DNA from: Candidatus Saccharimonadota bacterium
GTDB lineage: Bacteria > Patescibacteriota > Saccharimonadia > Saccharimonadales > SZUA-47
Direction: 5' to 3'
DNA: 64,000 nucleotides
NCBI GenBank assembly: GCA_016700315.1
Contig: CP065013.1
Location: 129,449-193,448, forward strand
Part shown: in pieces, positions 1,513-40,711 of the stretch
Layout of the letters: the number at the start of each line of letters is the position of its first letter
Numbering within the stretch: the stretch's first letter is position 1
The notes under the pieces: generated by a model
What the model was told of the DNA's origin: nothing
The model's input: only the letters and a program-made list of their open reading frames with translations
Databases searched by the model: none
Made by a program: the position numbers and the translations under genes

Positions 1513-1584
1513 TTTTGTTTTCCCTCTTATCTAATATAAGCTTAGCATAAGTGGTTAATAAAAATACAGAAGTAGACCACCGAT

Positions 1585-5337: not shown

Positions 5338-5676
5338 CCAGCCTGCTTACTTGCAGCGCAAGTAACTCTGCTGCTGGTGCGAAACCCGTTCCCCTTCTAA
5401 AAGCTTTAGGTACTCTTCACGAAAAGAGTAAAACTATAAGCTTTTCCCGTGCCGTAAATCACACGAATGATTTTGGCTTTGATCTGTTTTTTGTTTTTGT
5501 TTTTGTTGTCAGTCAGATCACCCCTTATTGTACAGAGGCGAAAATGCTAATGCAAGAGAAAGACCGAAGTTATACACAGGAATCTAAATCTGTCTTTCTG
5601 TACCACAAAATACTAAAAACATCGGGACCAAGCAGCTTAAATTTAGGTATTATCGTGCTAGCCGTATGATACTAGC

Positions 5677-6405: not shown

Positions 6406-6449
6406 CTATTATTCTACCAAAGCCCCAGACTAACTCCTAAAGTAGGTAC

Positions 6450-20388: not shown

Positions 20389-20498
20389 CAGCACCACTCC
20401 AAGGACTACAGCACCACTCCAAGGACTATCCTTGGAATTGATTTAACAGATTAGTTTGCGCAGACAGCCACCCTTCCAAGGATAGTCCTTGGAGTGGT
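20389..20498. repeat. REP doublet, 3' flank of RAYT-1
   Basis: The 20-bp direct repeat cagcaccactccaaggacta occurs twice (20389-20428). Hairpin tCCAAGGActaTCCTTGGa lies at 20418-20436. An inverted copy tCCAAGGAtagTCCTTGGa at 20475-20493 abuts the RAYT stop. Confidence 0.8.
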
Positions 20499-21136
20499 TA
20501 TTTTGAGTTTGCTATAAGTTTATATAGAGCGTCCAGAACTTCTTTTTCCGGCTTGTAGTCTTCGACAAACTTTTCGTAGTCCCCACCTTCAAATAGCTCG
20601 AAAACTTTATGCTGCTTAACCCAATCTACCATCCATCCCCGAGTATAGTATGGCCAAGATGAATATGGCCAACTTTTATATTCTTTAGGGTTAAGATGGA
20701 TATATCGAGAAATGTGCAACAAATAAGGTTCATTCGTTATCTTGGAGGCCTTATACGGACCTTGAAACAAGTGCCCAATCCTCCTATGTCTTTTATTGAA
20801 ATACTTTGTATAGCTGGTGACAAGGCTTCGCATAAAGCTTTCCATCGCTTTTATACTATCGTTTTGAGCTATCATTAAATGAAAATGGTTAGGCATTAAA
20901 CAAAAAGCAATTAAATCAACCTCTCCGTTATAGTTTGGGTACCTTCTTTTTCGATCATCTACGTTGGTATTCTTTCCCAAATACCTCTGAAGTAGCATTA
21001 GGAAGTATTTATAGTCATGTTCGTCAATAAATATTCGCCGTCTATTAACCCCACGATTATAGATATGGTAATAAGAGTCTGTGTCGTAAAACTTAATCAC
21101 ATTCCTACTTGGCATTGCTTTACTATACCACAACAA
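20498..21136 (-). CDS. REP-associated tyrosine transposase (RAYT, IS200/Y1 HUH family), copy 1
   Basis: MPSRNVIKFYDTDSYYHIYNRG..., HUH motif PNHFHLMI, and a C-terminal Tyr region ISRYIHLNP. REP palindromes lie on both flanks. The likely true start is the ATG at 21115 (MPSRN...), matching the N-terminus of copy 2. Confidence 0.8.
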   Translation of the reverse strand: MLWYSKAMPSRNVIKFYDTDSYYHIYNRGVNRRRIFIDEHDYKYFLMLLQRYLGKNTNVDDRKRRYPNYNGEVDLIAFCLMPNHFHLMIAQNDSIKAMESFMRSLVTSYTKYFNKRHRRIGHLFQGPYKASKITNEPYLLHISRYIHLNPKEYKSWPYSSWPYYTRGWMVDWVKQHKVFELFEGGDYEKFVEDYKPEKEVLDALYKLIANSK

Positions 21137-24200: not shown

Positions 24201-25683
24201 AGGCATCACTACTAGAGCGGCTGATTGCTATGGAAGTGTCCTGGCCGGTATTTGCCGCTACTGAATCTACTGTGACACATTGCCAGTCGGTAGAGTCACA
24301 GCTGCCACCTGAACCGACATAGTAGGCAAGCCTGAGGGAACCAGCAGTGTTATCTTTATAAGCTATCCAGGGCTTGCCATTGCTATTCATCGCGATTGAG
24401 GCATAGCTACCGACATCGTTTGTTGTCACAACACCGCTTGTCGATGTACCTCCACCCTTGGTGTAGTAATCTACTCTCAAGTTACCAGCTGTAGTATTCC
24501 GTGTTGCCACCCAAGCCCCTCCAGAAGAATCTAGGGCTAGACCAATCTGGCTGTTTTGGGCTGAAGTATCGACGTTAAAGCACTGATAGTTAGTATCCAA
24601 ACAATTACCGGTCGGCGATTCTGGTTTTTGAAAGCCCTTAACCCGCCTCCAGACACCATCACCAGTGTCGTAAAAAAGAGCGAGGTTCTCTGTGTCCACT
24701 GGCCCACTAGTGTTTTTGAGCTGAGTTCTTAGTGTCAGTCTTTCGCCTTTACGAGCAGAGACAGCTGTGCTACCAGGTGCGAGCTGGCCAGCACCATCTC
24801 CTGAAGCATCATCCATTTCCCAGATGTAACCTTTGAGCGCTAACTGTGGCTTGTTCTTGTAATAGGTATAGGTGGCGCTAACATTGGCTTGATACAACCT
24901 AACGTCATCATCTATAACACTAGCGGCACCAACGCCAACAGCATTACGCGTGAATCTTATCCTAAGATCGTTTATCGCCGACCAGCCAGTAGTAAAGGTT
25001 GTTGTGTAGTTGGTAATTGTTGTAGTCAGAGTAGTTGTCTGAGCTGTCTGCAAAGCACCATTGATATAGATGTTGACACTCACTGAGTCACAATTTGGTG
25101 CCGTGCCTTGACAAGCTGTGTCTATTTTGGCGCGCCAGTTTACTACAACCTGAGTAGTCTGTACGAATGTTCCGTTGATGGTTGGATTTTGAATAGTGTA
25201 GTCGTCTATTTCTCCAGTAGTGTTGCCCGCCAAACCCGTATTAACATAGTCGGCATCGTTAGCTGAAGTCTCATCGACAAGTGTGTAGTGGTTGGTGCCA
25301 GAACAGGCTGCATTCGTACATAGTTCCCAGCCGGCTGTGTTGTCACCATCAGGATATAGATTGTTTGTAGCGGTGTAAAGAGCTTGCGCAGGAGTGCTAC
25401 TCCTGAAAAAGTTAAGCAGTGGAACCCCAACCAGCAAAAGAACTGCAACAAATGACGAAACTCTTCGGAAGAACAGTGGGCTCAGCTTATAACGCCGCCC
25501 AATGTTTGCGAATAAGTTTTTTACTCTCCTTGGCTTTTTAACTTGTATACTTTTGATCGGGAGATTAGTCAGTATTGAGCTGCCCATCGTAGACGTTCGA
25601 GAGAAATAACTAGTGTCTTTAGAGGATATGTCGGCCTCTCTTGGCTTTACCCCATCAAGATAGTTTGTTCTTTTATAACGCAT
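21274..25683 (-). CDS. Giant surface protein D (class 2): two blocks of ~46-aa propeller-like repeats
   Basis: ORF of 1,469 aa. The ATG lies 1 nt after the stop of gene E (TAAAATG). TM helix FVAVLLLVGVPLL. About 15 repeats follow the pattern GNPW[VI]SYYDxTNxDLKVAxYVGSGGxGCASxAWxCTxVDTxGxVGxxTSIAFD. The C-terminal tail is QQLRHGRTFNRSLSQPF. Confidence 0.8.
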   Translation of the reverse strand: MRYKRTNYLDGVKPREADISSKDTSYFSRTSTMGSSILTNLPIKSIQVKKPRRVKNLFANIGRRYKLSPLFFRRVSSFVAVLLLVGVPLLNFFRSSTPAQALYTATNNLYPDGDNTAGWELCTNAACSGTNHYTLVDETSANDADYVNTGLAGNTTGEIDDYTIQNPTINGTFVQTTQVVVNWRAKIDTACQGTAPNCDSVSVNIYINGALQTAQTTTLTTTITNYTTTFTTGWSAINDLRIRFTRNAVGVGAASVIDDDVRLYQANVSATYTYYKNKPQLALKGYIWEMDDASGDGAGQLAPGSTAVSARKGERLTLRTQLKNTSGPVDTENLALFYDTGDGVWRRVKGFQKPESPTGNCLDTNYQCFNVDTSAQNSQIGLALDSSGGAWVATRNTTAGNLRVDYYTKGGGTSTSGVVTTNDVGSYASIAMNSNGKPWIAYKDNTAGSLRLAYYVGSGGSCDSTDWQCVTVDSVAANTGQDTSIAISRSSSDAWVSYYDVTNTNLRVAGSNNPSGTACTLASWECTTIDSTGDVGSYSKLALDNNGNPWIAYYDNTNNDLKVAQYVGAGAGTGCASNYWTCTSVDTGGNVGGFTSIAMDPSGNPWVSYYDTTNLDLKVAQYVGSGGSGCASSAWTCTSVDTSGSVGGYTSLAFDPIGNPWVSYQDITNTALKLARFVGSGGSGCASSAWSCTTVETTNSVGYFTSLAFDQDGVPWVAHEDLTTDSVRMAYLRQSLGAITLSSSQAGVSAFAESHADMTTSSDTSNRDDADCIGGGTWNNGKSFASDEGTGVSVADGSSTAQCTEVAWTIDTSQATINSTYRFFITTDDGERVERGRWRGPIAIDAFPTLTIEDDTKYNTTQILTKGTISNMPDCADTNWGCTAIDTATNVGGAAENNSYAVDRNGVGWISYYDQGNGDLRVANYVGTGGTGCAISSWTCTSVDTTNDVGQFTSIGIDSNGNPWVSYRDITNTGLRVARYVGSGGTGCASTAWTCTAVYNTGDSGSNGTSIAFDKSGVAWVSFRDSTATDLLVAKYVGSGGTGCVDSTWNCNTIASTGNVGYNSSLVFDQDNNIVISYRDATGTDLKIARYVGNGGSCDASPAWDCGSVDNPTNTVGHASSAAYDPTGAMWISHYDYDAAGLNLRVTKYVGTGGSCSNTSWSCTAVDTGGDVGEDTSIGFDSTGNAWVSYYDLTNGNLKVAKYVGSGGTGCASAAWNCTAVDTANNVGAGTAIAFDPNGNPSVVYGDSTNNDLRIATYKTQNVAPTFSTVNIAAPRNAIRSSGRYVLSNGQPSATPASHPCSGVLDMLGLCGALKEDGGYETMVAGVYERPMVMQKARFSNNSTAPTLAWTGLTDYPPNTAGTAGDLKLQIYRFGTTNAWEDVATDNSSSSCSSSSCKLNGMPGGTISEYFETEGSNYNVYFRVIQIENTSGSITFKTDVHKATQVVQQLRHGRTFNRSLSQPFATEQR

Positions 25684-25684
25684 T

Positions 25685-28600
25685 TTAGTTTGTGTAGAGG
25701 TAGCTTACTTCGCCTACCCTGACCCCGTTATTACTTAGTGATAGAGTCTTAAAGCTTACGGTAATTATATCATTCGCCGCAAAACTACAGCCAGTTAGAG
25801 TGACTGACTGTTCAGTCCAGGTATTAGCCGTGCCAGGGAGAACAGAGACACTGGTAGCACATGCTGTTCCAGCATTATCACGAACCGTAACTTGTATGTC
25901 ATTATTAGCCGTGCTGGTCGAAGCACCGTAAACCCAGACTTTGAATGTACCAAAGCCTGAGCGATAGTCGCTAGGGATCTGATTTCGCACCACTATATCG
26001 TAGTCCTGGAGTGATGCCTGAGAACTGCTCCAGCTGTAGTAGTTGTGGCGATTTGTACCATCGTAGTCTGAGGACATGACACCGCTATTGTTGGTCCCGT
26101 CCGCAGTAAGTGTCCCGCCAGCAAACTCAGGGATCATGTAAATCTTTCTGCTGTTGAAATTGTTACTGCAATCACCCCAGTTACCGTTCTGGTAACAGCG
26201 CATCTTACCAGTGCTACTGTTGTAGTACATCGCACCGTTTACTCCGGTAGGGTCGGTTGCATCAGTCTTTGTGTCGAGAACTAATAGTGTCCCTGCTGTG
26301 TCGGAAACGCCAATCTGTACTTGCCCATCGAACTGAGATATTCCACTATCAACCCACAGTGCGTATGTGCTAGCCCCTTCAACATATACACCATAGTTAT
26401 TTGTACCCGAAGTCTGGTTCCTAACCAATACGCCATAGCTGTTGGTTATGGTGGAGGATGCACCCTTAATTGGGTTTTCTGCCATTAGGCCTACGGTTGA
26501 ACTAAGAGTAAATGCTACGTTAGATGTATCGACTCGCCCATATATGCCAACACCAGAATTAGGGCTAGTTGGGTTATCTATGTATGGTATGCCCGTAACA
26601 CCGTAACAGCCGAAGTTACAAGCAACCGTTGATCCAAAAGTGCTCTTTACTCGTAAGCCTTCGTTAGACACTTGTGCGGAGCCAATTCCAACATTACCTT
26701 CTCCGCCAACTATCAACCCAGTATAAGCTCCATTATTTACTGTGGCTCTAAGAGCATATTGGCTAGAGCTAGAGGACTGAATGTCAATAGAAACACCATT
26801 AGCTGTAGAGTTTGCTGCATCGAGCGTTGCAAGGTTTCCAGTGCCTGAGCCGGTAACGTTTAGAACAGCACCGGTTGATCCTGTAAACTGTTGGTTAAGC
26901 TCTAAGATATTTGAGGTGTCAGTACAAGTACCGACGGTTTGTGTACAGTTTGACTGAAGATTGGCCAGATCACCAGTTATGTTTAGCGTCGCACTGGTGG
27001 CGTTAACGGTATTGGATCTAGAGACGTTCAGCCAACGGCCTGAGTCTGTTTGTGTTGCAGAAGCCGTGGCTAGCGTTCGCGCAGGTGAAACGTTGAGCCA
27101 ATTGCCAGTAAACCCAGCTGTAATACTGCTGGCTGTACTTCCGATGTTAACTGCAGAAGTATTCGTTGCGGCGTTATTTGTTGCAAGATAGAGCAAACCA
27201 CTAGATGCTCCCGTACCTGCATTTGTAATAGTAAGAACGTTTGCTGCACCAGTGGAGTTTTGAGTAAGACTCAGCAAGGCCGCAGTAGAGCCCAGATCGT
27301 TATTAGTTATGTTAGCTAGAGCGGTACTGCTGTCATTGGTTGCATCGTTAGCTTGAGTGATATTCAGAAGATTTGTCGAACGCGCTCCACCACTAAGATC
27401 GCTGTTCAGTACTAGACTTCCGGCATTCGCTCCGTTGAATGTAGCTGCTCGTGCTGCAGTTACACTAAGTATCGAACTACCGCTATTCTGCAGATCTAAC
27501 AAGGTTCCTCCTGTAGCCGTTGTTAGTAAGGCCGTACCCGTATTATTACCATTATCTATCTTGAGCACACCACTAGCTACCGCACTACTAGAGTTCGTAA
27601 AACCATAGAGGTAGTTTGAAGCCGTAACAGACAGGGTTGAAGTATCGGCGGCGTTTTTTGCAAGGTAGTTACCGCCGCTTGATGGTGCAAACGCAGTACA
27701 AGTTAGAGTGTCGCCTATAGTAGTAACAGCCGTACCAGCTGCACAGGCTGTTGGGTAGTTAGATAAAGCTGTCCAGTCTACTGTACCAGCAGAGCTAATG
27801 GTAATAGCGTCATTGATGTAGGCATCAGCTATGACACTACCCTGCCAAGTACCGGCTGTAACGACGCCAGAGCTGTTAATTTGGAACAAGTCACCGTTAC
27901 CAACAGTGAATAGCGATGCAGGTGTCATGTCACCTATGCCAAAGTTACCAGCATTAATATAGCTGACCGAGGAATCCGCCCTGAGCCTGACTGTGTTAGT
28001 GCCAGCGCTATATAAGTCCAAAATACCAACGTTACCCACACCCGAACCGTCATAAAGACTGGCGGTTAGGGTACCTGTGTCACGCACCTCAAAAGAGCCT
28101 TGACCTGCAGTTGATGATGAGCGAACTGCACCAACTACCTCAAGTGGTGTGGCAGGGTTAGTCAAGCCAACACCAACCCTGTTGTTGGTAGCGTCTACAT
28201 ATAAGGTGTTGGTGTCGACCGCTAGGTTATTTGTAACCACAGCGTTCCCCAAGTTGTCTACCGTGAATAGGTCAGTTCCACCGTTATTCTCTACTACAAA
28301 GATATTGGATGTTTGAGTACCGTTAGCTTGGACCAGAAGTTGTATCTCGTCACTATCTCCATCTACAGCTAACTTAGCTAGGGCTACGGCTGAGCCGATG
28401 GTTACATCGTCAGTGCTGGTTTGTAGAGTGACAAGTGTACCAGTGTCGGTGAAACCAGAGGTGTTGGTGCCAACATTGTCTGTGGCACAGGCCCAGGCTG
28501 AACCGTTCCACTTCATGATGTCGTTAGTGCTACAGCCGTTCTGGGCGATGTTGCTAAAGAGGATAGTAGCACTAGCTAGATCAGTACCAGTAACTGTACC

Positions 28601-31600
28601 GTCGGTTATCTCACTACTGTCTATGCTTGAACCAAAGTCATTAAGTAGAGTCAGAGTAACTGTACCACCAAGGCTAACCGTGCCACCACCAGTTAGGCCA
28701 GTACCGGCTGTAACAGTGATGCCGCTGTTGACTAGTTTAGCGTTAGTAATAGTACCGTCAGCAATATCTGCAGCTACAATGGTGCCATCGACTATCTCGC
28801 TACTGTCTATGCTAGTTCCTAGTGTAGCGGCAATGGTTAGAGTATCTGTAGTACCGTTACCAGTAATAGTAATACCAGCTCCATCACTTAGAGTTAGAGT
28901 ATCTGTACTGCTATCTGCTACTGGGTTGGTGCCGTTAGATACAGCTATTGTTTCGAAGGAGTTACCTGCTCCGCCGCCCGTTGCATCAGTTGCACAGGCC
29001 CAGGCTGAACCGTTCCACTTCATGATGTCGTTAGTGCTACAGCCGTTCTGGGCGATGTTACTAAAGAGGATGGTTGAGCTGGCGATGTCAGTACCTATGA
29101 CAGTACCGTCAGTTATCTCGCTAGATTCTATGGTTTGACCTAGTTTAGTCACGTTAGCACTTAGTGCACCGTCAGCTACACTACCTGATGAGCTAATAGT
29201 TAGAGCATCACTAATGTTAGTGTCGGTTAATTGTCCAGTGTAGCTTAGACTACCTAGAGCTAGAGTACCGCTGCTGAGAGTGCCGGTGTTATCTGCATCG
29301 AAGATGTAGGCTTCAACTTGAGCTTCGGTTAGAACAGTATCCGAATCTGCATCTGTACCACAGTACCAAGCAGTACCATTGAACTTAATTACTTCTCCAT
29401 TATTACAAGAGTTACTAGCAATGTCGGCGAAGGTAATAGTACCGTTAGCAATATCTGCACTGCTGACTTCACCGTCAGTTATCTCACTAGATTCGATGCT
29501 AGTACCTAGGGTTGAGCTAATGACATTACCGCCGCTGATGTTAATGCCAGTACCAGCTGTGTAGGTAGTGTCGGTGTCAGTGTCGGTATCACAATTCCAG
29601 CCAGCAGCTAGTGGGCCAGCACCATCTGGATCGGTTGTGTAGTACTTGAGGACTTGAGCATCAGTGCTACAGGCAGCTAGTTTAGCAGTAGTGACTGCAC
29701 CGGCGTTAATAAGGGCGGTGGTTATGGCATTGTTAGCAATGTCGGCAGTAGCAATAGTACCGTCGACTATCTCGCTGCTGTCGATGCTGGTGCCAAGTGA
29801 AGACTGTAAGGTAACTGTACCACCAAGGCTAACCGTGCCACCACCAGTTAGGCCAGTACCGGCTGTGACGGTGACGCTACTGTTAACTAGTTTAGCGTTA
29901 GTAATAGTACCATCAGCAATATCTGCAGCTACAATGGTGCCGTCGACTATCTCGCTACTGTCTATGCTAGTTCCAAGTACAGCAGCAACTGTTAGAGTGT
30001 CGGTTGTAGCATCACCAGTTATGGTAATACCTGAACCTTCAGCGATGGTTATAGTGTCTGTAGTGCTATCTGCAACTGGGTCGGTGCCATTAGGTGCATC
30101 AAAGGTAGCGAAGGTATTAGTACCACTACCAGTGTTGTCTGTGGCACAGGCCCAGGCTGAACCGTTCCACTTCATGATGTCGTTAGTGCTACAGCCGTTC
30201 TGGGCGATGTTGCTAAAGAGGATAGTAGCACTAGCTAGATCAGTACCAGTAACTGTACCGTCTGTTATCTCGCTGCTGTCGATGCTGGTGCCAAGTGAAG
30301 ACTGTAAGGTAACTGTGCCACCAAGGCTGACACTACCACCACCAGTTAGTCCAGTACCAGCCGTAACTGTTATAGCGCTGTTAGCTAATTGAGAGTTAGT
30401 GATACCAGCAGAAGCTGAGATATCTGTAGTGGTAATAGTACCGTTAGCAATATCTGCACTGCTGACTTCACCGTCAGTTATCTCACTAGATTCGATGCTA
30501 GTACCTAGGGTTGAGCTAATGACATTACCGCCGCTGATGTTAATGCCAGTACCAGCTGTGTAGGTAGTGTCGGTGTCAGTGTCGGTATCACAATTCCAGC
30601 CAGCAGCTAGTGGGCCAGCACCATCTGGATCGGTTGTGTAGTACTTGAGGATTTGGCTGTCACTGCTACAGGCAGCTAGTTTAGCAGTAGTGACTGCACC
30701 GGCGTTAATAAGGGCGGTGGTTATGGCATTGTTAGCAATGTCGGCAGTAGCAATAGTACCGTCGACTATCTCGCTGCTGTCGATGCTGGTGCCAAGCGTT
30801 GTTTGTAGGGAGTTGCCAGAAATAGTCAGACCAGTACCAGTAAGGTCGGTGAAGGCATCCCCATTTACAGTAAAGGTGTCCCCAGTCTCTAGAGTAAGCC
30901 CACCATTCAATGTCGTAAGCCCAGTTACGGTTAGGCTTCCCGAGAAAGTAGCAGCCCCAGCACTGGATATTGTTAAGCGATCTACATTATTAGTCTCGAG
31001 TGCAAAGGCTGAAGAGTCATTAGTGCCAACAGTCAGCGGACCCGTCTGCCCGCCGTTATACACATCGCCTGCCCCGTTACCAGAACCAGCACAATTACCA
31101 CTGGTAGTACACACTACTGATGTATCAATTGCTAGGGCTCCTGAAGAAACTAACAAACCAGTACCAGTAAGATCAGTAAAAGCGTCCCCATTGACGGTCA
31201 GTGTGTCTCCTGTTTCAAGAGTGAGACCACCATTAGCTGTTAGTAGTCCTGTAATGGTCGGGCTAGATACTAATGCGACAGTTACCGTATCAGTTGCGCC
31301 AGCAGTAGTGCTAATGTTGCTTCCTGCTGCAATTGTAATGGTGTCTGTGTCACTTATTGTTTGGCTAGTACCAGAGCTACCTGCCAATGTCAGACTAGTA
31401 AAGCCGCCGCCGCCAGCCGTACAGCTGCCCCAAACGGCCGTTGTTCCGTCGCTTAGAAGACACTGGTTATTTGAGCCAATACCCAGCTTTGTCCAGGTAT
31501 TTGACGTTGCGCCGCCTAGCAGTAAGTCACCTTGTGCGACCGTACTTTGACCAGTGCCTCCATTGCCTGCGCCTAGTACGCCATTGACCTCAGCTGTGTT

Positions 31601-34600
31601 TAGGTCAATCGTTGAACCAAAAAAGTTATTCAATGTTACTGACCCACCTAGCGAAACTGAACCACCTCCTGTCAATCCTGTCCCAGCAGTTACTGTGACT
31701 GAGCTATTTGCAAGATCGACATTTGCTATCGTTCCATCTGCTATATCGGCTGACAATATTGTGCCGTCGACGATCTCACTTGTTGTAATATCTGCACCGA
31801 GAGTAGCAGCGATAGTCAGTGTATCAGTGGTGCCATCGCCCGTGATAGTAACACCTGATCCTTGAGCAAAAGTTATAGTATCCGTTGTTGAATCAGCAAC
31901 AGGGTTAGTGCCATTTGGTGTGGCAAAGGTAGCAAATGTGTCAGTTCCCGAGCCCGTTGCATCAGTTGCACAGGCCCAGGCTGAACCGTTCCACTTCATG
32001 ATGTCGTTAGTGCTACAGCCGTTCTGGGCGATGTTACTAAAGAGGATGGTTGAGCTGGCGATGTCAGTACCTATGACAGTACCGTCAGTTATCTCGCTAG
32101 ATTCTATGGTTTGACCTAGTTTAGTCACGTTAGCACTTAGTGCACCGTCAGCTACACTACCTGATGAGCTAATAGTTAGAGCATCACTAATGTTAGTGTC
32201 GGTTAATTGTCCAGTGTAGCTTAGACTACCTAGAGCTAGAGTACCGCTGCTGAGAGTGCCGGTGTTATCTGCATCGAAGATGTAGGCTTCAACTTGAGCT
32301 TCGGTTAGAACAGTATCCGAATCTGCATCTGTACCACAGTACCAAGCAGTACCATTGAACTTAATTACTTCTCCATTATTACAAGAGTTACTAGCAATGT
32401 CGGCGAAGGTAATAGTACCGTTAGCAATATCTGCACTGCTGACTTCACCGTCAGTTATCTCACTAGATTCAATGCTAGTACCTAGTGTTGAGCTAATGAC
32501 ATTACCGCCGCTGATGTTAATGCCAGTACCAGCTGTGTAGGTAGTGTCGGTGTCAGTGTCGGTATCACAATTCCAGCCAGCAGCTAGTGGGCCAGCACCG
32601 TCTGGATCAGTTGTGTAGTACTTGAGGATTTGGCTGTCACTGCTACAGTTAGCTAGTTTAGCTAGAGTGACTGCACCGTCAGTGATGTCTACAGTAGCAA
32701 TAGTACCGTTGGCAATATCTGCGCTAGTGATGGTGCCGTCTAGTATCTCGTCACTAGTAACAGCATCAGTATTAATATCTGCTGCGGTTATAGTGTTGTC
32801 TGCTATTAGGGTGGAGGTAATAGCACTAGTAGCTATGTTAGAAGTAGTAATAGTTGAGCTAGCAATGTCAGTACCAGTAACTGTACCGTCGGTTATCTCA
32901 CTACTGTCTATGCTTGAACCAAAGTCATTAAGTAGAGTCAGAGTAACTGTACCACCAAGGCTAACCGTGCCACCACCAGTTAGGCCAGTACCGGCTGTAA
33001 CAGTGATGCCGCTGTTGACTAGTTTAGCGTTAGTAATAGTAGCGTCAGCAATATCTGCAGCTACAATGGTGCCATCGACTATCTCGCTACTGTCTATGCT
33101 AGTTCCTAGTGTAGCGGCAATGGTTAGAGTATCTGTAGTACCGTTACCAGTAATAGTAATACCAGCTCCATCACTTAGGGTTAGAGTATCTGTACTGCTA
33201 TCTGCTACTGGGTTAGTACCGTTAGATACAGCGATTGTTTCGAAGGAGTTACCTGCTCCGCCGCCCGTTGCATCAGTTGCACAGGCCCAGGCTGAACCGT
33301 TCCACTTCATGATGTCGTTAGTGCTACAGCCGTTCTGGGCGATGTTACTAAAGAGGATGGTTGAGCTGGCGATGTCAGTACCTATGACAGTACCGTCAGT
33401 TATCTCGCTAGATTCTATGGTTTGACCTAGTTTAGTCACGTTAGCACTTAGTGCACCGTCAGCTACACTACCTGATGAGCTAATAGTTAGAGCATCACTA
33501 ATGTTAGTGTCGGTTAATTGTCCAGTGTAGCTTAGACTACCTAGAGCTAGAGTACCGCTGCTGAGAGTGCCGGTGTTATCTGCATCGAAGATGTAGGCTT
33601 CAACTTGAGCTTCGGTTAGAACAGTATCCGAATCTGCATCTGTACCACAGTACCAAGCAGTACCATTGAACTTAATTACTTCTCCATTATTACAAGAGTT
33701 ACTAGCAATGTCGGCGAAGGTAATAGTACCGTTAGCAATATCTGCACTGCTGACTTCACCGTCAGTTATCTCACTAGATTCGATGCTAGTACCTAGGGTT
33801 GAGCTAATGACATTACCGCCGCTGATGTTAATGCCAGTACCAGCTGTGTAGGTAGTGTCGGTGTCAGTGTCGGTATCACAATTCCAGCCAGCAGCTAGTG
33901 GGCCAGCACCGTCTGGATCAGTTGTGTAGTACTTGAGGATTTGGCTGTCACTGCTACAGTTAGCTAGCTTAGCTAGAGTGACTGCACCGTCAGTGATGTC
34001 TACAGTAGCAATAGTACCGTTGGCAATATCTGCGCTAGTGATGGTGCCGTCTAGTATCTCGTCACTAGTAACAGCATCAGTATTAATATCTGCTGCGGTT
34101 ATAGTGTTGTCTGCTATTAGGGTGGAGGTAATAGCACTAGTAGCTATGTTAGAAGTAGTAATAGTTGAGCTAGCAATGTCAGTACCAGTAATTGTACCAT
34201 CAGTTATCTCACTACTGTCTATGCTTGAACCAAAGTCATTAAGTAGAGTCAGAGTAACTGTACCACCAAGGCTAACCGTGCCACCACCAGTTAGGCCAGT
34301 ACCGGCTGTAACAGTGATGCCGCTGTTGACTAGTTTAGCGTTAGTAATAGTAGCGTCAGCAATATCTGCAGCTACAATGGTGCCATCGACTATCTCGCTA
34401 CTGTCTATGCTAGTTCCTAGTGTAGCGGCAATGGTTAGAGTATCTGTCGTACCGTTACCAGTAATAGTAATACCAGCTCCATCACTTAGGGTTAGAGTAT
34501 CTGTACTACTATCTGCTACTGGGTTAGTACCGTTAGATACAGCGATTGTTTCGAAGGAGTTACCTGCTCCGCCGCCCGTTGCATCAGTTGCACAGGCCCA

Positions 34601-34750
34601 GGCTGAACCGTTCCACTTCATGATGTCATTAGTGCTACAGCCGTTCTGGGCGATGTTACTAAAGAGGATGGTTGAGCTGGCGATGTCAGTACCTATGACA
34701 GTACCGTCAGTTATCTCGCTAGATTCTATGGTTTGACCTAGTTTAGTCAC
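25685..34750 (-). CDS. Giant surface protein E, 3' segment (frame is open up to ~35815; the track start is only the first in-frame GTG)
   Basis: Same frame (end coordinate mod 3 = 1) as the 5' segment 38111-40711. I checked 34751-35797 codon by codon against the neighbouring repeat copy and found no stop. Ends with the class-1 C-terminal module. Confidence 0.8.
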   Translation of the reverse strand: MTKLGQTIESSEITDGTVIGTDIASSTILFSNIAQNGCSTNDIMKWNGSAWACATDATGGGAGNSFETIAVSNGTNPVADSSTDTLTLSDGAGITITGNGTTDTLTIAATLGTSIDSSEIVDGTIVAADIADATITNAKLVNSGITVTAGTGLTGGGTVSLGGTVTLTLLNDFGSSIDSSEITDGTITGTDIASSTITTSNIATSAITSTLIADNTITAADINTDAVTSDEILDGTITSADIANGTIATVDITDGAVTLAKLANCSSDSQILKYYTTDPDGAGPLAAGWNCDTDTDTDTTYTAGTGINISGGNVISSTLGTSIESSEITDGEVSSADIANGTITFADIASNSCNNGEVIKFNGTAWYCGTDADSDTVLTEAQVEAYIFDADNTGTLSSGTLALGSLSYTGQLTDTNISDALTISSSGSVADGALSANVTKLGQTIESSEITDGTVIGTDIASSTILFSNIAQNGCSTNDIMKWNGSAWACATDATGGGAGNSFETIAVSNGTNPVADSSTDTLTLSDGAGITITGNGTTDTLTIAATLGTSIDSSEIVDGTIVAADIADATITNAKLVNSGITVTAGTGLTGGGTVSLGGTVTLTLLNDFGSSIDSSEITDGTVTGTDIASSTITTSNIATSAITSTLIADNTITAADINTDAVTSDEILDGTITSADIANGTIATVDITDGAVTLAKLANCSSDSQILKYYTTDPDGAGPLAAGWNCDTDTDTDTTYTAGTGINISGGNVISSTLGTSIESSEITDGEVSSADIANGTITFADIASNSCNNGEVIKFNGTAWYCGTDADSDTVLTEAQVEAYIFDADNTGTLSSGTLALGSLSYTGQLTDTNISDALTISSSGSVADGALSANVTKLGQTIESSEITDGTVIGTDIASSTILFSNIAQNGCSTNDIMKWNGSAWACATDATGSGTDTFATFATPNGTNPVADSTTDTITFAQGSGVTITGDGTTDTLTIAATLGADITTSEIVDGTILSADIADGTIANVDLANSSVTVTAGTGLTGGGSVSLGGSVTLNNFFGSTIDLNTAEVNGVLGAGNGGTGQSTVAQGDLLLGGATSNTWTKLGIGSNNQCLLSDGTTAVWGSCTAGGGGFTSLTLAGSSGTSQTISDTDTITIAAGSNISTTAGATDTVTVALVSSPTITGLLTANGGLTLETGDTLTVNGDAFTDLTGTGLLVSSGALAIDTSVVCTTSGNCAGSGNGAGDVYNGGQTGPLTVGTNDSSAFALETNNVDRLTISSAGAATFSGSLTVTGLTTLNGGLTLETGDTFTVNGDAFTDLTGTGLTISGNSLQTTLGTSIDSSEIVDGTIATADIANNAITTALINAGAVTTAKLAACSSDSQILKYYTTDPDGAGPLAAGWNCDTDTDTDTTYTAGTGINISGGNVISSTLGTSIESSEITDGEVSSADIANGTITTTDISASAGITNSQLANSAITVTAGTGLTGGGSVSLGGTVTLQSSLGTSIDSSEITDGTVTGTDLASATILFSNIAQNGCSTNDIMKWNGSAWACATDNTGSGTNTFATFDAPNGTDPVADSTTDTITIAEGSGITITGDATTDTLTVAAVLGTSIDSSEIVDGTIVAADIADGTITNAKLVNSSVTVTAGTGLTGGGTVSLGGTVTLQSSLGTSIDSSEIVDGTIATADIANNAITTALINAGAVTTAKLAACSTDAQVLKYYTTDPDGAGPLAAGWNCDTDTDTDTTYTAGTGINISGGNVISSTLGTSIESSEITDGEVSSADIANGTITFADIASNSCNNGEVIKFNGTAWYCGTDADSDTVLTEAQVEAYIFDADNTGTLSSGTLALGSLSYTGQLTDTNISDALTISSSGSVADGALSANVTKLGQTIESSEITDGTVIGTDIASSTILFSNIAQNGCSTNDIMKWNGSAWACATDATGGGAGNSFETIAVSNGTNPVADSSTDTLTLSDGAGITITGNGTTDTLTIAATLGTSIDSSEIVDGTIVAADIADGTITNAKLVNSGITVTAGTGLTGGGTVSLGGTVTLTLLNDFGSSIDSSEITDGTVTGTDLASATILFSNIAQNGCSTNDIMKWNGSAWACATDNVGTNTSGFTDTGTLVTLQTSTDDVTIGSAVALAKLAVDGDSDEIQLLVQANGTQTSNIFVVENNGGTDLFTVDNLGNAVVTNNLAVDTNTLYVDATNNRVGVGLTNPATPLEVVGAVRSSSTAGQGSFEVRDTGTLTASLYDGSGVGNVGILDLYSAGTNTVRLRADSSVSYINAGNFGIGDMTPASLFTVGNGDLFQINSSGVVTAGTWQGSVIADAYINDAITISSAGTVDWTALSNYPTACAAGTAVTTIGDTLTCTAFAPSSGGNYLAKNAADTSTLSVTASNYLYGFTNSSSAVASGVLKIDNGNNTGTALLTTATGGTLLDLQNSGSSILSVTAARAATFNGANAGSLVLNSDLSGGARSTNLLNITQANDATNDSSTALANITNNDLGSTAALLSLTQNSTGAANVLTITNAGTGASSGLLYLATNNAATNTSAVNIGSTASSITAGFTGNWLNVSPARTLATASATQTDSGRWLNVSRSNTVNATSATLNITGDLANLQSNCTQTVGTCTDTSNILELNQQFTGSTGAVLNVTGSGTGNLATLDAANSTANGVSIDIQSSSSSQYALRATVNNGAYTGLIVGGEGNVGIGSAQVSNEGLRVKSTFGSTVACNFGCYGVTGIPYIDNPTSPNSGVGIYGRVDTSNVAFTLSSTVGLMAENPIKGASSTITNSYGVLVRNQTSGTNNYGVYVEGASTYALWVDSGISQFDGQVQIGVSDTAGTLLVLDTKTDATDPTGVNGAMYYNSSTGKMRCYQNGNWGDCSNNFNSRKIYMIPEFAGGTLTADGTNNSGVMSSDYDGTNRHNYYSWSSSQASLQDYDIVVRNQIPSDYRSGFGTFKVWVYGASTSTANNDIQVTVRDNAGTACATSVSVLPGTANTWTEQSVTLTGCSFAANDIITVSFKTLSLSNNGVRVGEVSYLYTN
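28480..30800 (-). repeat. Second block of the same repeat family within gene E (one near-identical unit plus diverged or partial units)
   Basis: 28980-29560 is essentially identical to 31950-32540. The landmark at 29379 lies 2,976 nt from the next copy, so this block is not in register with the main array. The ~1.15-kb unique segment 30800-31950 separates it from the main array. Confidence 0.8.
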
Positions 34751-37700
34751 GTTAGCACTTAGTGCACCGTCAGCTACACTACCTGATGAGCTAATAGTTA
34801 GAGCATCACTAATGTTAGTGTCGGTTAATTGTCCAGTGTAGCTTAGACTACCTAGAGCCAGAGTACCGCTGCTGAGAGTGCCGGTGTTATCTGCATCGAA
34901 GATGTAGGCTTCAACTTGAGCTTCGGTTAGAACAGTATCCGAATCTGCATCTGTACCACAGTACCAAGCAGTACCATTGAACTTAATTACTTCTCCATTA
35001 TTACAAGAGTTACTAGCAATGTCGGCGAAGGTAATAGTACCGTTAGCAATATCTGCACTGCTGACTTCACCGTCAGTTATCTCACTAGATTCAATGCTAG
35101 TACCTAGTGTTGAGCTAATGACATTACCGCCGCTGATGTTAATGCCAGTACCAGCTGTGTAGGTAGTGTCGGTGTCAGTGTCGGTATCACAATTCCAGCC
35201 AGCAGCTAGTGGGCCAGCACCGTCTGGATCGGTTGTGTAGTACTTGAGGATTTGGCTGTCACTGCTACAGTTAGCTAGTTTAGCTAGAGTGACTGCACCG
35301 TCAGTGATGTCTACAGTAGCAATAGTACCGTTGGCAATATCTGCGCTAGTGATGGTGCCGTCTAGTATCTCGTCACTAGTAACAGCATCAGTATTAATAT
35401 CTGCTGCGGTTATAGTGTTGTCTGCTATTAGGGTGGAGGTAATAGCACTAGTAGCTATGTTAGAAGTAGTAATAGTTGAGCTAGCAATGTCGGTACCAGT
35501 AACTGTACCATCGGTTATCTCACTACTGTCTATGCTTGAAGCAAAGTCAGTACGTAGAGTCAGAGTAACTGTGCCACCAAGGCTAGCCGTGCCACCACCA
35601 GTTAGGCCAGTACCGGCTGTAACAGTGATGCCGCTGTTGACTAGTTTAGCGTTAGTAATAGTAGCGTCAGCAATATCTGCAGCTACAATGGTGCCATCGA
35701 CTATCTCGCTACTGTCTATGCTAGTTCCTAGTGTAGCGGCAATGGTTAGAGTATCTGTAGTACCGTTACCAGTAATAGTAATACCAGCTCCATCACTTAG
35801 GTTAGAGTATCTGTACTACTATCTGCTACTGGGTTAGTACCGTTAGATACAGCGATTGTTTCGAAGGAGTTACCTGCTCCGCCGCCCGTTGCATCAGTTG
35901 CACAGGCCCAGGCTGAACCGTTCCACTTCATGATGTCGTTAGTGCTACAGCCGTTCTGGGCGATGTTGCTAAAGAGGATGGTTGAGCTGGCGATGTCAGT
36001 ACCTATGACAGTACCGTCAGTTATCTCGCTAGATTCTATGGTTTGACCTAGTTTAGTCACGTTAGCACTTAGTGCACCGTCAGCTACACTACCTGATGAG
36101 CTAATAGTTAGAGCATCACTAATGTTAGTGTCGGTTAATTGTCCAGTGTAGCTTAGACTACCTAGAGCTAGAGTACCGCTGCTGAGAGTGCCGGTGTTAT
36201 CTGCATCGAAGATGTAGGCTTCAACTTGAGCTTCGGTTAGAACAGTATCCGAATCTGCATCTGTACCACAGTACCAAGCAGTACCATTGAACTTAATTAC
36301 TTCTCCATTATTACAAGAGTTACTAGCAATGTCGGCGAAGGTAATAGTACCGTTAGCAATATCTGCACTGCTGACTTCACCGTCAGTTATCTCACTAGAT
36401 TCAATGCTAGTACCTAGTGTTGAGCTAATGACATTACCGCCGCTGATGTTAATGCCAGTACCAGCTGTGTAGGTAGTGTCGGTGTCAGTGTCGGTATCAC
36501 AATTCCAGCCAGCAGCTAGTGGGCCAGCACCGTCTGGATCGGTTGTGTAGTACTTGAGGATTTGGCTGTCACTGCTACAGTTAGCTAGCTTAGCTAGAGT
36601 GACTGCACCGTCAGTGATGTCTACAGTAGCAATAGTACCGTTGGCAATATCTGCGCTAGTGATGGTGCCGTCTAGTATCTCGTCACTAGTAACAGCATCA
36701 GTATTAATATCTGCTGCGGTTATAGTGTTGTCTGCTATTAGGGTGGAGGTAATAGCACTAGTAGCTATGTTAGAAGTAGTAATAGTTGAGCTAGCAATGT
36801 CGGTACCAGTAATAGTGCCATTAGTTATCTCACTACTGTCTATGCTTGAACCAAAGTCATTAAGTAGAGTCAGAGTAACTGTACCACCAAGGCTAACTGT
36901 GCCACCACCAGTTAGGCCAGTGCCGGCTGTAACAGTGATGCCGCTGTTGACTAGTTTAGCGTTAGTAATAGTAGCGTCAGCAATATCTGCAGCTACAATG
37001 GTGCCATCGACTATCTCGCTACTGTCTATGCTAGTTCCTAGTGTAGCGGCAATGGTTAGAGTATCTGTCGTACCGTTACCAGTAATAGTAATACCAGCTC
37101 CATCACTTAGGGTTAGAGTATCTGTACTACTATCTGCAACTGGGTTAGTACCGTTAGATACAGCGATTGTTTCGAAGGAGTTACCTGCTCCGCCGCCCGT
37201 TGCATCAGTTGCACAGGCCCAGGCTGAACCGTTCCACTTCATGATGTCACCACTGCCACAGCCGTTCTGGGCGATGTTGCTAAAGAGGATGGTTGAGCTG
37301 GCGATGTCAGTACCTATGACAGTACCGTCTGTTATCTCGCTAGATTCTATGGTTTGACCTAGTTTAGTCACGTTAGCACTTAGTGCACCGTCAGCTACAC
37401 TACCTGATGAGCTAATAGTTAGAGCATCACTAATGTTAGTGTCGGTTAATTGTCCGGTGTAGCTTAGACTACCTAGAGCTAGAGTACCGCTGCTGAGAGT
37501 GCCGGTGTTATCTGCATCGAAGATGTAGGCTTCAACTTGAGCTTCGGTTAGAACAGTATCCGAATCTGCGTCTGTACCACAGTACCAAGCAGTACCATTG
37601 AACTTAATTACTTCTCCATTATTACAAGAGTTACTAGCAATGTCGGCGAAGGTAATAGTACCGTTAGCAATATCTGCACTGCTGACTTCACCGTCAGTTA

Positions 37701-39105
37701 TCTCACTAGATTCAATGCTAGTACCTAGGGTTGAGCTAATGACATTACCGCCGCTGATGTTAATGCCAGTACCAGCTGTGTAGGTAGTGTCGGTGTCAGT
37801 GTCGGTATCACAATTCCAGCCAGCAGCTAGTGGGCCAGCACCGTCTGGATCAGTTGTGTAGTACTTGAGGATTTGGCTGTCACTGCTACAGTTAGCTAGC
37901 TTAGCTAGAGTGACTGCACCGTCAGTGATGTCTACAGTAGCAATAGTACCGTTGGCAATATCTGCGCTAGTGATGGTGCCGTCTAGTATCTCGTCACTAG
38001 TAACAGCATCAGTATTAATATCTGCTGCGGTTATAGTGTTGTCTGCTATTAGGGTGGAGGTAATAGCACTAGTAGCTATGTTAGAAGTAGTAATAGTTGA
38101 GCTAGCAATGTCAGTACCAGTAACTAGTGCCATTAGTTATCTCACTACTGTCTATGCTTGAACCAAAGTCATTAAGTAGAGTCAGAGTAACTGTACCACC
38201 AAGGCTAACTGTGCCACCACCAGTTAGGCCAGTGCCGGCTGTAACAGTGATGCCACTGTTGACTAGTTTAGCGTTAGTAATAGTAGCGTCAGCAATATCT
38301 GCAGCTACTATGGTGCCATCGACTATCTCGCTACTGTCTATGCTAGTTCCTAGTGTAGCGGCAATGGTTAGAGTATCTGTCGTACCGTTACCAGTAATAG
38401 TAATACCAGCTCCATCACTTAGGGTTAGAGTATCTGTACTGCTATCTGCTACTGGGTTAGTGCCGTTAGATACAGCTATTGTTTCGAAGGAGTTACCTGC
38501 TCCGCCGCCCGTTGCATCAGTTGCACAGGCCCAGGCTGAACCGTTCCACTTCATGATGTCGTTAGTGCTACAGCCGTTCTGGGCGATGTTGCTAAAGAGG
38601 ATGGTTGAGCTGGCGATGTCAGTACCTATGACAGTACCGTCTGTTATCTCGCTAGATTCTATGGTTTGACCTAGTTTAGTCACGTTAGCACTTAGTGCAC
38701 CGTCAGCTACACTACCTGATGAGCTAATAGTTAGAGCATCACTAATGTTAGTGTCGGTTAATTGTCCAGTGTAGCTTAGACTACCTAGAGCTAGAGTACC
38801 GCTGCTGAGAGTGCCGGTGTTATCTGCATCGAAGATGTAGGCTTCAACTTGAGCTTCGGTTAGAACAGTATCCGAATCTGCATCTGTACCACAGTACCAA
38901 GCAGTACCATTGAACTTAATTACTTCTCCATTATTACAAGAGTTACTAGCAATGTCGGCGAAGGTAATAGTACCGTTAGCAATATCTGCACTGCTGACTT
39001 CACCGTCAGTTATCTCACTAGATTCAATGCTAGTACCTAGTGTTGAGCTAATGACATTACCGCCGCTGATGTTAATGCCAGTACCAGCTGTGTAGGTAGT
39101 GTCGG
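31955..39105 (-). repeat. Tandem array of 1,311-bp (437-aa) units, ~5.45 copies, ~98-99% nucleotide identity
   Basis: Landmark strings recur at 32355, 33666, 34977, 36287, 37598 and 38910. The spacings are 1311, 1311, 1310, 1311 and 1312. I counted ~15 substitutions in ~1,050 aligned nt between two adjacent copies. Confidence 0.9.
35797..38133 (-). CDS. Giant surface protein E, middle segment (shifted frame, between the two frameshifts)
   Basis: 778 aa of the same 437-aa repeat units read in a different frame. It stops at TAA 35797-35799, which is created by loss of one G at 35800-35801. Confidence 0.7.
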   Translation of the reverse strand: MALVTGTDIASSTITTSNIATSAITSTLIADNTITAADINTDAVTSDEILDGTITSADIANGTIATVDITDGAVTLAKLANCSSDSQILKYYTTDPDGAGPLAAGWNCDTDTDTDTTYTAGTGINISGGNVISSTLGTSIESSEITDGEVSSADIANGTITFADIASNSCNNGEVIKFNGTAWYCGTDADSDTVLTEAQVEAYIFDADNTGTLSSGTLALGSLSYTGQLTDTNISDALTISSSGSVADGALSANVTKLGQTIESSEITDGTVIGTDIASSTILFSNIAQNGCGSGDIMKWNGSAWACATDATGGGAGNSFETIAVSNGTNPVADSSTDTLTLSDGAGITITGNGTTDTLTIAATLGTSIDSSEIVDGTIVAADIADATITNAKLVNSGITVTAGTGLTGGGTVSLGGTVTLTLLNDFGSSIDSSEITNGTITGTDIASSTITTSNIATSAITSTLIADNTITAADINTDAVTSDEILDGTITSADIANGTIATVDITDGAVTLAKLANCSSDSQILKYYTTDPDGAGPLAAGWNCDTDTDTDTTYTAGTGINISGGNVISSTLGTSIESSEITDGEVSSADIANGTITFADIASNSCNNGEVIKFNGTAWYCGTDADSDTVLTEAQVEAYIFDADNTGTLSSGTLALGSLSYTGQLTDTNISDALTISSSGSVADGALSANVTKLGQTIESSEITDGTVIGTDIASSTILFSNIAQNGCSTNDIMKWNGSAWACATDATGGGAGNSFETIAVSNGTNPVADSSTDTLT

Positions 39106-40711
39106 TGTCAGTAGAAGGGACCCAACCAGTACCATTCCACTTTAGAACTTCACCAGACGATGCGCCTTGTTGGGCCAGGTTGAAGGTCGTACCAACTAGG
39201 CTTAGACCCTGCCCAGCGCTATACGTAGTTCCCACAGGTACTGCACAAGCGAACGCGACCCCGTTCCATACGGGAGCTTCGCCATTTGAGCTACAACTGA
39301 GGCCGCTAACCGTATCGCCACTGCGTGAAAATAGGCCATTGCCCGTAAAGGTTAGGGGATTCTCTTTGGAGTTGAATGTTACCCAATCTGTACTAGTCAG
39401 AAGGCCAGTAGTTGTATTCGATGCCGAGTTGATTGTTATTACACCACTAGAAACTGTAGCATTAGATAACGTTAAGGCACCCGAAGCCCCATTGATAGAA
39501 GCTACTCCATTTGCTCCGGGACACGTAGTGAAGATCGGAGCGCCCGAAGTACTGACCAAGCACTGACCAGCACTTGCTGCGCTGGCAGTCTGTAGCGCAC
39601 CAGCCCCGCCGCCAATCACTACGCCGTTGTTGGTGATACTGGTTAGCCCCGTACCACCCGAACTAACGCTGAGAGCAGTAGATAAAATAAGTCCAGAAAA
39701 TGTTGGGCTGGCACTTGTATCGATGTTCTGTACTGTGTTGGCTACGCCAGCAGCAACAGTAAAGTTGATGCCGTTGAACTGAGCTATTCCCTTAGCTGAT
39801 GTGGAGGCATCATTGATTGTGATAGTACTACCAGAAGCTGAAGAGTCTGCTACTGCTAGGTTACCAGCGAGTCCGTTAAGACTAGTTACGCCTGCACCGA
39901 CTCCACCTGGACACACACCGAAGGCGGGCGCTCCAGCCGTGCTAAGCAAACACAACCCCGCTGTGGCTGTTGATGCAGTTGTTACAGGAGAACTTCCGTT
40001 ACCAAGTAAAACCCCGTTTGGAGTCAAACTTGTAGCACCCGTACCCCCAGAACCAACAGCAAGTGCGTTCGAAAGATTAACACCTGAAAAAGTTGGTACT
40101 GCAGTCGGATTCAAAGATTGAGGCAATGAGATCGAGGCAATACCGTTAGCTGTGCTAACATTTATGTCCCCGGCTGTACCGTTTACACCGAGCAAACCAC
40201 TCGAACTGATAGTAGTTCCGTTGATAGCAATGCCTGCTCCTGGAACTAGACTAACCGCACCAGTTTGACCTTGCAGACTCGTGACACCGGCGACTGTTGG
40301 TGCAGCAGTTTGCTGGTTGTTGGCTTCTGTAGTCGGCAGCTGCACAAATTTACTGCCGTCGTAATACTGTAAGGTTGAGGTAGCAGAGTCAAAAACCAAA
40401 GTTCCCGGCTTAGCGTTAGCCGGTAGGGACTGCGGCAAAATTGTTATCGGCCCGTTAAGCTGTAAATTGGGATTTATGGTCAAAGTCTGACCAGCAAAAC
40501 CTAGACTTTTACCATCATCTGATAGATAGCCGTTAACAGAGGCTTTTTGATAGCCTACATTCAGCGAAGAATTTTTCTTGGAAGCAAAATAGAATGCTAA
40601 AAGACTGAGTAAGAAAACAATTATCATAAGTAGCACAATAATCACTCCACGACGAAGAAAGGACCAGAAACCGTAGTCTTCTCTATTGTAATGAGGTTGT
40701 GTTGGCTGCAT
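38111..40711 (-). CDS. Giant surface protein E, 5' segment (N-terminal anchor plus unique stalk plus first repeat unit)
   Basis: ATG at 40711 preceded by AAAATAAAAACAAAATCAAA. TM helix VIIVLLMIIVFLLSLLAFYF. Terminates at 38111 immediately after an extra C at 38124. Confidence 0.75.
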   Translation of the reverse strand: MQPTQPHYNREDYGFWSFLRRGVIIVLLMIIVFLLSLLAFYFASKKNSSLNVGYQKASVNGYLSDDGKSLGFAGQTLTINPNLQLNGPITILPQSLPANAKPGTLVFDSATSTLQYYDGSKFVQLPTTEANNQQTAAPTVAGVTSLQGQTGAVSLVPGAGIAINGTTISSSGLLGVNGTAGDINVSTANGIASISLPQSLNPTAVPTFSGVNLSNALAVGSGGTGATSLTPNGVLLGNGSSPVTTASTATAGLCLLSTAGAPAFGVCPGGVGAGVTSLNGLAGNLAVADSSASGSTITINDASTSAKGIAQFNGINFTVAAGVANTVQNIDTSASPTFSGLILSTALSVSSGGTGLTSITNNGVVIGGGAGALQTASAASAGQCLVSTSGAPIFTTCPGANGVASINGASGALTLSNATVSSGVITINSASNTTTGLLTSTDWVTFNSKENPLTFTGNGLFSRSGDTVSGLSCSSNGEAPVWNGVAFACAVPVGTTYSAGQGLSLVGTTFNLAQQGASSGEVLKWNGTGWVPSTDTDTTYTAGTGINISGGNVISSTLGTSIESSEITDGEVSSADIANGTITFADIASNSCNNGEVIKFNGTAWYCGTDADSDTVLTEAQVEAYIFDADNTGTLSSGTLALGSLSYTGQLTDTNISDALTISSSGSVADGALSANVTKLGQTIESSEITDGTVIGTDIASSTILFSNIAQNGCSTNDIMKWNGSAWACATDATGGGAGNSFETIAVSNGTNPVADSSTDTLTLSDGAGITITGNGTTDTLTIAATLGTSIDSSEIVDGTIVAADIADATITNAKLVNSGITVTAGTGLTGGGTVSLGGTVTLTLLNDFGSSIDSSEITNGTSYWY

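Follow-up and report, generated by a model that had tools for sequence, protein, structure and literature searches.

A near-identical tandem array in a giant gene of a Saccharibacteria chromosome, probably encoding the stalk of a surface protein

What protein is built from more than 7 kb of nearly identical coding repeats in the chromosome of an ultrasmall bacterium, and does the gene that carries them still form one reading frame? The question is raised by a 64,000-nucleotide (nt) stretch of contig CP065013.1 (GenBank assembly GCA_016700315.1), called the window below, in which a giant gene on the minus strand contains a tandem array of 1,311-nt units. An earlier note on this DNA, made from the sequence letters, had described the array and proposed it as a probably length-variable stalk of a surface fibre. 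The organism is a member of Saccharibacteria (TM7, Patescibacteria), and its isoleucyl-tRNA synthetase (IleRS) is 60-80% identical to those of Saccharimonadia metagenome-assembled genomes (MAGs). The locus probably encodes one cell-surface protein of ~5,008 amino acids (aa), with the array as its central stalk. By comparison with known systems, the best-supported reading is a Periscope-type fibrillar adhesin with reversed topology and a tail-fibre-like stalk. The principle of high-identity tandem repeats in giant surface adhesins is already known, and the locus is a new example of it.

The array spans positions 31952-39112, a length of 7,161 nt, and holds 5.46 units of 1,311 nt (437 aa), bounds that lie within a few bases of the 31955-39105 and 5.45 units given in the earlier note. 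It was delimited with a repeat finder and self-blastn; Tandem Repeats Finder, with a longest period of 500, gave no match for a 1,311-nt unit. The repeat finder places the in-register unit starts at 31952, 33263, 34574, 35884, 37195 and 38507 in plus-strand numbering. By self-blastn, the segment 31952-37800 matches 33263-39112 with 98.8% identity over 5,851 nt. The five full units (A-E) are pairwise 97.8-99.4% identical and adjacent units differ by 0.6-1.4%, close to the ~1-1.5% estimated earlier. Because the repeats are so long and so identical, chance is not an issue for the array. Among the IleRS-region loci of 80 related genomes, which together cover 1.5 Mb, a direct repeat of at least 200 nt with at least 90% identity is found only once; it lies at 14243-17128 of locus L053, where copies of 583 nt, 98.8% identical, are 2.3 kb apart.

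The array is coded on the minus strand, a point absent from the earlier note, and the peptide motifs that it listed are found in reverse-complement frames. Both of its Cys-pair motifs are present (GEVIKFNGTAWYCGTD seven times, NDIMKWNGSAWACATD eight times), and a third pair that it did not list occurs in every unit (C...SQILKYYTTDPDGAGPLAAGWNC). Its sub-repeats of ~20-25 aa are found as well, with LGTSI[DE]SSEI occurring 18 times. Near-identical copies also stand beyond the array, at 28563-29702 and 30431-30796, and these too had gone unrecorded; ~2.2 kb of far more diverged repeat separates the array from the first of them, called the dispersed copy below (Table 1).

The differences between the units fall as expected for a translated sequence. 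Among units A-E 32 codons vary, and 22 of the 32 are changed synonymously, which agrees with the earlier impression of mostly synonymous or conservative differences. By the method of Nei and Gojobori (NG86), the mean nonsynonymous divergence (dN) among units is 0.0045 and the mean synonymous divergence (dS) 0.040, a ratio of 0.11. This ratio, together with the synonymous bias, indicates that the unit differences are biological and that the sequence is translated and selected, and supports an array that codes for a protein under purifying selection. The plus strand of the array carries identical open reading frames (ORFs) of 267 aa, one per unit (32622-33425, 33933-34736 and 36554-37357). They were taken for antisense by-products that the repeat composition leaves open, with no sign of being genes, and the selection signal sits in the minus frame.

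The same variants also bear on how the units came to be so similar. In the four-gamete test on 15 informative sites in the five units, 58 of 105 pairs of sites fail, so that no single duplication tree fits, as is expected under gene conversion or unequal exchange. Variants of the dispersed copy are shared with different array units, which points to non-tandem conversion or a very recent duplication. In the best relative (L084, 63% aa identity), homologous units are only 71-78% identical, and the near-identity in the array is therefore not imposed by protein constraint. The earlier note had proposed ongoing gene conversion or unequal crossing-over; the mosaic sites, the 96-98% identity of the dispersed copy and the divergence of the L084 units support recent amplification or homogenisation, in that the units appear to have exchanged sequence or to have been amplified very recently.

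As assembled, the reading frame is broken twice within the array. The statement of the earlier note that the unit length is a multiple of three holds for three of the unit spacings (1311, 1311, 1310, 1311 and 1312) and fails for the two of 1310 and 1312, which mark a one-base deletion at 35797-35799 and an extra A at 38126. The local sequence at 38126, AACTAGTGCC, is a hybrid, or merge, of the unit variants AACTGTACC and AATAGTGCC. When the A at 38126 is dropped and the G at 35797-35799 restored, a single ORF of 15,027 nt results, with 5,008 aa and no internal stop. Since the two 1-nt indels break this frame, the gene appears in the deposited genome as three "hypothetical proteins", with lengths of 866, 778 and 3,021 aa, which are identical to the three fragments of Table 1. 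Along 13.9 kb of unique flank, a short-read contig assembled independently from the same species (L001, 99.44% identical) can be aligned with zero gaps, so that indels are seen only within the repeat. The source genome, with a contig of 988,272 bp, is evidently a long-read, near-closed assembly, and the deposited annotation inherits the split. Short-read polishing is unreliable where reads map to several repeat units. Going by the style of its accession and locus tags, the genome presumably comes from the set of Nanopore MAGs made from Danish activated sludge. In the pipeline of that set, the last step is Racon polishing with Illumina reads (PMC8012365). Errors of consensus calling or polishing within the repeat, in a long-read assembly, are the most likely source of the two indels.

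An alternative is that the frameshifts exist in the cells and that the array is a relic, belonging either to a pseudogene or to a switched-off phase of the gene. Both indels stand in the deposited genome, one of them in a short homopolymer, and loss or switching is frequent among giant surface genes. A relative with 95% identity (L200) has a contig on which only the last ~570 aa of the gene remain, behind an unrelated gene for a sigma factor, and this may represent a deletion. However, two indels are all that interrupt the frame, no other stop being present in 15 kb, and dN/dS is 0.11. The extra base lies exactly where a consensus caller would merge two unit variants, a GGG run is shorter than classical slipped-strand phase variation would need, and the unique flanks are without indels against the independent assembly L001. 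Real frameshifts, and with them a relic, are rather unlikely.

The repaired protein has one hydrophobic segment, near its N-terminus and directly preceded by RR, which is predicted to act as a membrane anchor and to place the protein on the cell surface. The residues are mainly T, G, S, A, N and D, and paired Cys occur throughout. The motif search found neither LPXTG nor RTX GGxGxD repeats in the 5,008 aa; an LPXTG-anchored adhesin and an RTX adhesin of a type 1 secretion system (T1SS) were rejected on these two absences and on the lack of a Pfam match. Matches come instead from phage tail-fibre families, all of them segmental. Parts of the unit match phrog_892 (2.5e-12) and phrog_677, the "baseplate wedge tail fiber protein connector" family (1.3e-10), and further tail-fibre matches are to phrog_28766, phrog_21412 and phrog_7660. 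Relatives of aa 250-410 occur on 43 viral contigs, and some database homologues contain Peptidase_S74, DUF5907 or Mtd_N domains. The module family of the unit is large: a cut-off of E 1e-3 takes in 8,061 cluster representatives, and one of E 1e-30 takes in 126. Many members are 1.8-5.4 kaa long and have 9-32 matched stretches each.

The autocorrelation of I, V and L peaks at lags of 5, 10, 15 and 20, a strictly five-residue hydrophobic period. A sequence search of the Protein Data Bank (PDB) with the whole unit gave no match, and the best PDB matches, in which 90 residues align without gaps to designed pentapeptide-repeat solenoids, are non-significant (E 0.09-0.5). AlphaFold modelled one unit as a monomer with confidence only at three Cys-bracketed β-hairpins; the true state of the unit may be trimeric.

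At the other end of the protein, the last ~135 aa are modelled as a β-sandwich with an AlphaFold confidence score (pLDDT) of ~90. With this tip Foldseek finds CBM61, CBM35, CBM6 and CBM4, families of carbohydrate-binding modules (CBMs), along with C-terminal domains from the Klebsiella phage K2-2 tailspike and from Kp7 tail fibre gp52, at E ~1e-5 and with template modelling (TM) scores, normalised to the target, of 0.55-0.66. The tip is thus a probable carbohydrate-binding-like distal domain, which would bind glycans. The conserved domain of the last 254 aa, which contains this tip, is shared with a neighbouring protein of 2,177 aa, a shorter motif is present in one of 1,250 aa, and the family is also found at the C-termini of other large proteins of the candidate phyla radiation (CPR). 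With the predicted anchor, the tail-fibre-like modules and the CBM-like domain at the distal end, the surface fibre of the earlier note is plausible.

The units might themselves bind a ligand, in which case amplification would raise avidity or broaden specificity, and not length. Such a multivalent binding array would fit the phrog_677 match of one part of the unit and the tail-fibre matches of other parts, the three Cys-bracketed hairpins that each unit combines with tail-fibre-like modules, and the purifying selection on the unit sequence; some arrayed domains indeed bind ligands in the Periscope proteins (PMC8201768). However, the unit has no recognisable binding pocket or known binding domain, and the separate, well-folded CBM-like domain at the distal end is the usual layout of a stalk plus tip. 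A binding role of the units in place of a stalk is accordingly judged unlikely. The coordinates of all these features are collected in Table 1.

Table 1. Features of the giant gene and its neighbours (positions in the 64,000-nt window)
Feature	Position	Strand	Basis or remark
Whole giant gene, repaired	25685..40711	-	15,027 nt, 5,008 aa, single terminal stop
N-terminal membrane anchor (predicted)	40583..40651	-	aa 21/22-43, RRGVIIVLLMIIVFLLSLLAFYF; sole hydrophobic segment in 5,008 aa
Unique N-terminal extracellular region (predicted)	39101..40582	-	aa ~44-537; GGTG...LLG and Cys-loop modules; 99.6% identical in L001
Near-identical tandem array	31952..39112	-	aa 538-2920 of repaired protein; repeat finder, unit alignment, self-blastn
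Extra A, frame shift	38126	-	unit alignment; densest cluster of between-unit variable sites
GG for the GGG of all other units, 1-nt homopolymer deletion	35797..35799	-	unit alignment; makes in-frame TAA
Older diverged module copies, mixed with other modules	29703..31951	-	60-82% nt identity to units
Second short patch of near-identical repeat	30431..30796	-	98.6% over 367 nt to 29432-29797; 97.1-97.4% over 272 nt to array units (97-98.6% overall)
Dispersed copy, most of one unit	28563..29702	-	aa ~3715-4050; 96-98% identical to array units
Conserved C-terminal domain, last 254 aa	25688..26449	-	AlphaFold, Foldseek, family search
Fragment 1 as assembled, 866 aa	38111..40711	-	QQS65079.1, IPO96_00765; anchor, unique N-terminal region, array start; ended by +1 indel
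Fragment 2 as assembled, 778 aa	35797..38133	-	QQS65078.1, IPO96_00760; array in shifted frame between indels
Fragment 3 as called, 3,021 aa	25685..34750	-	QQS65075.1, IPO96_00745; frame really open to 35815
Next gene, 1,469 aa, N-terminal anchor	21274..25683	-	starts 2 nt past the stop of the giant gene
Further giant anchored proteins	12935-19468, 6450-12878, 1585-5337	-	downstream, same strand as giant gene

Three kinds of known protein resemble the product of this gene. First, Periscope proteins such as SasG/Aap, Rib, Sgo_0707 and CdrA (Whelan et al., 2021, PMC8201768) are surface proteins in which long tandem repeats, highly identical at the DNA level, lie between an anchor and a distal putative binding domain, and in which adjacent repeats break the usual rule of less than 50% identity. 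The present protein likewise has near-identical repeats, a surface anchor predicted from its sequence and a distal domain of putative function. It differs in having a membrane anchor at the N-terminus and a tip at the C-terminus, where Periscope proteins are anchored through LPXTG at the C-terminus and carry the tip at the N-terminus, and in having as its unit a 437-aa composite of ~6-8 small modules instead of a single globular domain of 80-130 aa. It also comes from a CPR epibiont. Among the papers searched, none links Periscope proteins with Patescibacteria.

Second, the likeness to phage tail fibres consists of unit segments matching PHROG families 892, 28766, 21412 and 7660, a tip like those of the K2-2 tailspike and Kp7 gp52, and the Peptidase_S74 chaperone carried by some homologues. 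In contrast to a phage fibre, the protein has a membrane anchor and no S74 domain, and its gene lies on a chromosome with genes for IleRS, a ribonucleotide reductase (RNR) and FtsZ/FtsA, no phage genes being found in its neighbourhood. Membership in a phage structural module was rejected, the neighbours being IleRS, ribosomal protein L21, RNR, FtsZ/FtsA and anchored giant proteins. Third, the five-residue hydrophobic period and the designed solenoids as best PDB matches recall the β-solenoid of pentapeptide repeats (Rfr fold). The PDB matches stay at E 0.09-0.5, however, Pfam Pentapeptide is not matched, and the AlphaFold model contains no solenoid; a pentapeptide repeat protein was rejected, Pfam giving nothing up to an E of 0.1.

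Taken as a Periscope-type adhesin with reversed topology, the protein would be held in the membrane by its single N-terminal hydrophobic helix. There would then follow ~4,000 residues of small tail-fibre-like modules, comprising stretches of the type xxDIAxxTI that repeat with a period of five residues, Cys-bracketed β-hairpins and G/T-rich β modules, which may form a rod-like stalk, and the end would be a β-sandwich tip like CBMs and the tips of phage receptor-binding proteins. A composite block of 437 aa would recently have been amplified to 5.5 tandem copies and one dispersed copy, and intragenic recombination, by unequal crossing-over and gene conversion, would keep the copies near-identical or have just made them so. 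High identity among their DNA sequences would allow units to be gained or lost easily, as in Periscope-type adhesins, and the array would set how far the glycan-binding tip reaches out from the epibiont in the direction of the host bacterium. For their epibiotic growth, Saccharibacteria depend on adhesins at the surface and on proteins that bind glycans (PMC10633639), and host attachment would therefore be a natural role of the protein. In a more far-reaching version, tail-fibre modules were recruited into an anchored, probably trimeric fibre for host recognition, whose length is retuned by gain and loss of units and which is switched off and on by frameshifts in the array. This version is quite unlikely as it stands; if it were true, the length of the array and the CBM-like tip would set which host envelopes can be reached, a host-range dial like that of phage tail-fibre evolution.

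Several points weigh against the adhesin. As assembled and deposited, the gene is three ORFs, and if the indels are real, its product is only an anchored stump of 866 aa. Mis-phased consensus calling in the repeat could also produce mosaic variants. No Pfam family was found at E up to 0.1 in the four protein pieces searched. The monomer model of the unit is a poor basis for a rod (pLDDT 62, predicted TM score 0.24), and the tip resembles CBMs only at the level of the fold, with 13-18% identity. The search for other assemblies brought up no further long-read one from this species, and variation of copy number from strain to strain was not observed.

Relatives give some view of how the gene varies. 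None of 80 GTDB relatives has an orthologue with the array unit next to IleRS, and the gene is therefore lineage-specific in its architecture. L084, the only good relative in a scan of metagenomes, follows the same plan, with an anchor, modules, 2-3 units (spacing 1,233 and 1,071 nt) and a C-terminal domain that begins in the same way. These units are diverged, and unit number thus differs between lineages, at the level of species only. L084 also contains, just past its anchor, a collagen-like Gly-X-Y stretch (GEKGDKGDQGQAG...; ~8800-8900, aa 101-135, open frame), which the protein of the window lacks. An exact-protein search of the contig index gave no match for the three fragments or for the neighbour.

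Near-identical hits are short-read contigs whose ends lie outside the repeats or at their margin. L001 breaks off 55 nt into the array, and contigs of strains with 88-96% identity (L153-155) start ~0.9-1.15 kb before the stop codon of the giant gene. Since contigs break at repeats, short-read data cannot tell how common such arrays are. That the unit count and variant pattern are themselves artefacts of long-read assembly or of mixed strains is highly improbable: although the source is a MAG, short-read assemblies fail to cross the array, and mosaic variants with a hybrid indel are the expected outcome of cross-mapped polishing, the variants are strongly biased towards synonymous changes and hence of biological origin and not random errors, typical long reads are amply long enough for a 7-kb array, and the flanking diverged copies and the dispersed copy serve as unique anchors.

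A few contigs show peculiarities of their own. In L200 (ENA ERZ28616116, scaffold_8393), positions 1-662 join a sigma-70 region-2 gene to the last ~570 codons, and identity to the window is 95.3% from 27414 downwards; either the two parts were joined into a chimera at a short word common to both, or the strain has lost most of the giant gene by deletion. L153, L154, L155 and L200, four independent contigs from strains of 88-96% identity, all start or lose homology within the 0.9 kb of 26558-27414, where the window has no repeated DNA, and the stretch immediately upstream may be hypervariable from strain to strain. By a hand count, contigs of relatives end within 10 kb downstream of IleRS in 29 of 80 cases (16 within 1.5 kb) and upstream in 18 of 80, and the region downstream of IleRS may be hard to assemble in related Saccharibacteria in general. 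The JGI contig L082 contains a near-perfect inverted duplication at 1-8670, with genes for a 619-aa protein (P0001) and a 639-aa PMT_2 protein on both arms, probably a fold-back assembly artefact.

The genes around the array are those of a cell. The flanks encode IleRS, L21, NrdR, class II RNR, FtsZ, FtsA, Ddl, Map, Adk, PriA, Def, Fmt and ParA. A phage origin, considered because of the many huge genes on the same strand, was ruled out by these housekeeping genes on both sides, which place the locus on a cellular chromosome. Rfam gave no match over the whole window, and no tRNAs were found in it. Downstream, between 1585 and 25683 on the same strand, four genes encode giant proteins of 1,469 aa, 2,177 aa (with CBM_4_9), 2,142 aa (with Kelch repeats) and 1,250 aa. 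A hydrophobic anchor stands at the N-terminus of each, and the 1,469-aa gene is probably co-transcribed with the array-containing gene. The five genes fill ~39 kb of a genome of ~0.99 Mb. The window also contains two genes for IS200-type Y1 transposases (20498-21136, minus strand; 62227-62835, plus strand) and one for an IS481-like DDE integrase (56995-57999, minus strand). The first of them sits between two of the giant genes, and a strain of 95.6% identity (L153) has it as well.

As far as their descriptions go, gene clusters for giant extracellular proteins are known, for example, from Apilactobacillus kunkeei (Giant1-5, PMC12863079), and large surface proteins from CPR bacteria such as Vampirococcus (PMC8080830). 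The present cluster is similar in that consecutive genes in a small genome encode surface proteins, here of 1,250-5,008 aa and predicted to be anchored. It differs in that two neighbours share the C-terminal module only.

Genes of this kind are invisible to short-read assemblies, and in long-read MAGs residual indels easily split them into hypothetical proteins; how frequent they are in CPR genomes, and how much they vary in length, is therefore probably underestimated. To our knowledge, little is known, apart from type IV pili, of the means by which epibiotic ultrasmall bacteria recognise and hold their hosts. The locus offers a concrete candidate, an anchored, fibre-like giant protein with a probable glycan-binding tip and a recombination-prone stalk, encoded in a cluster of similar genes.

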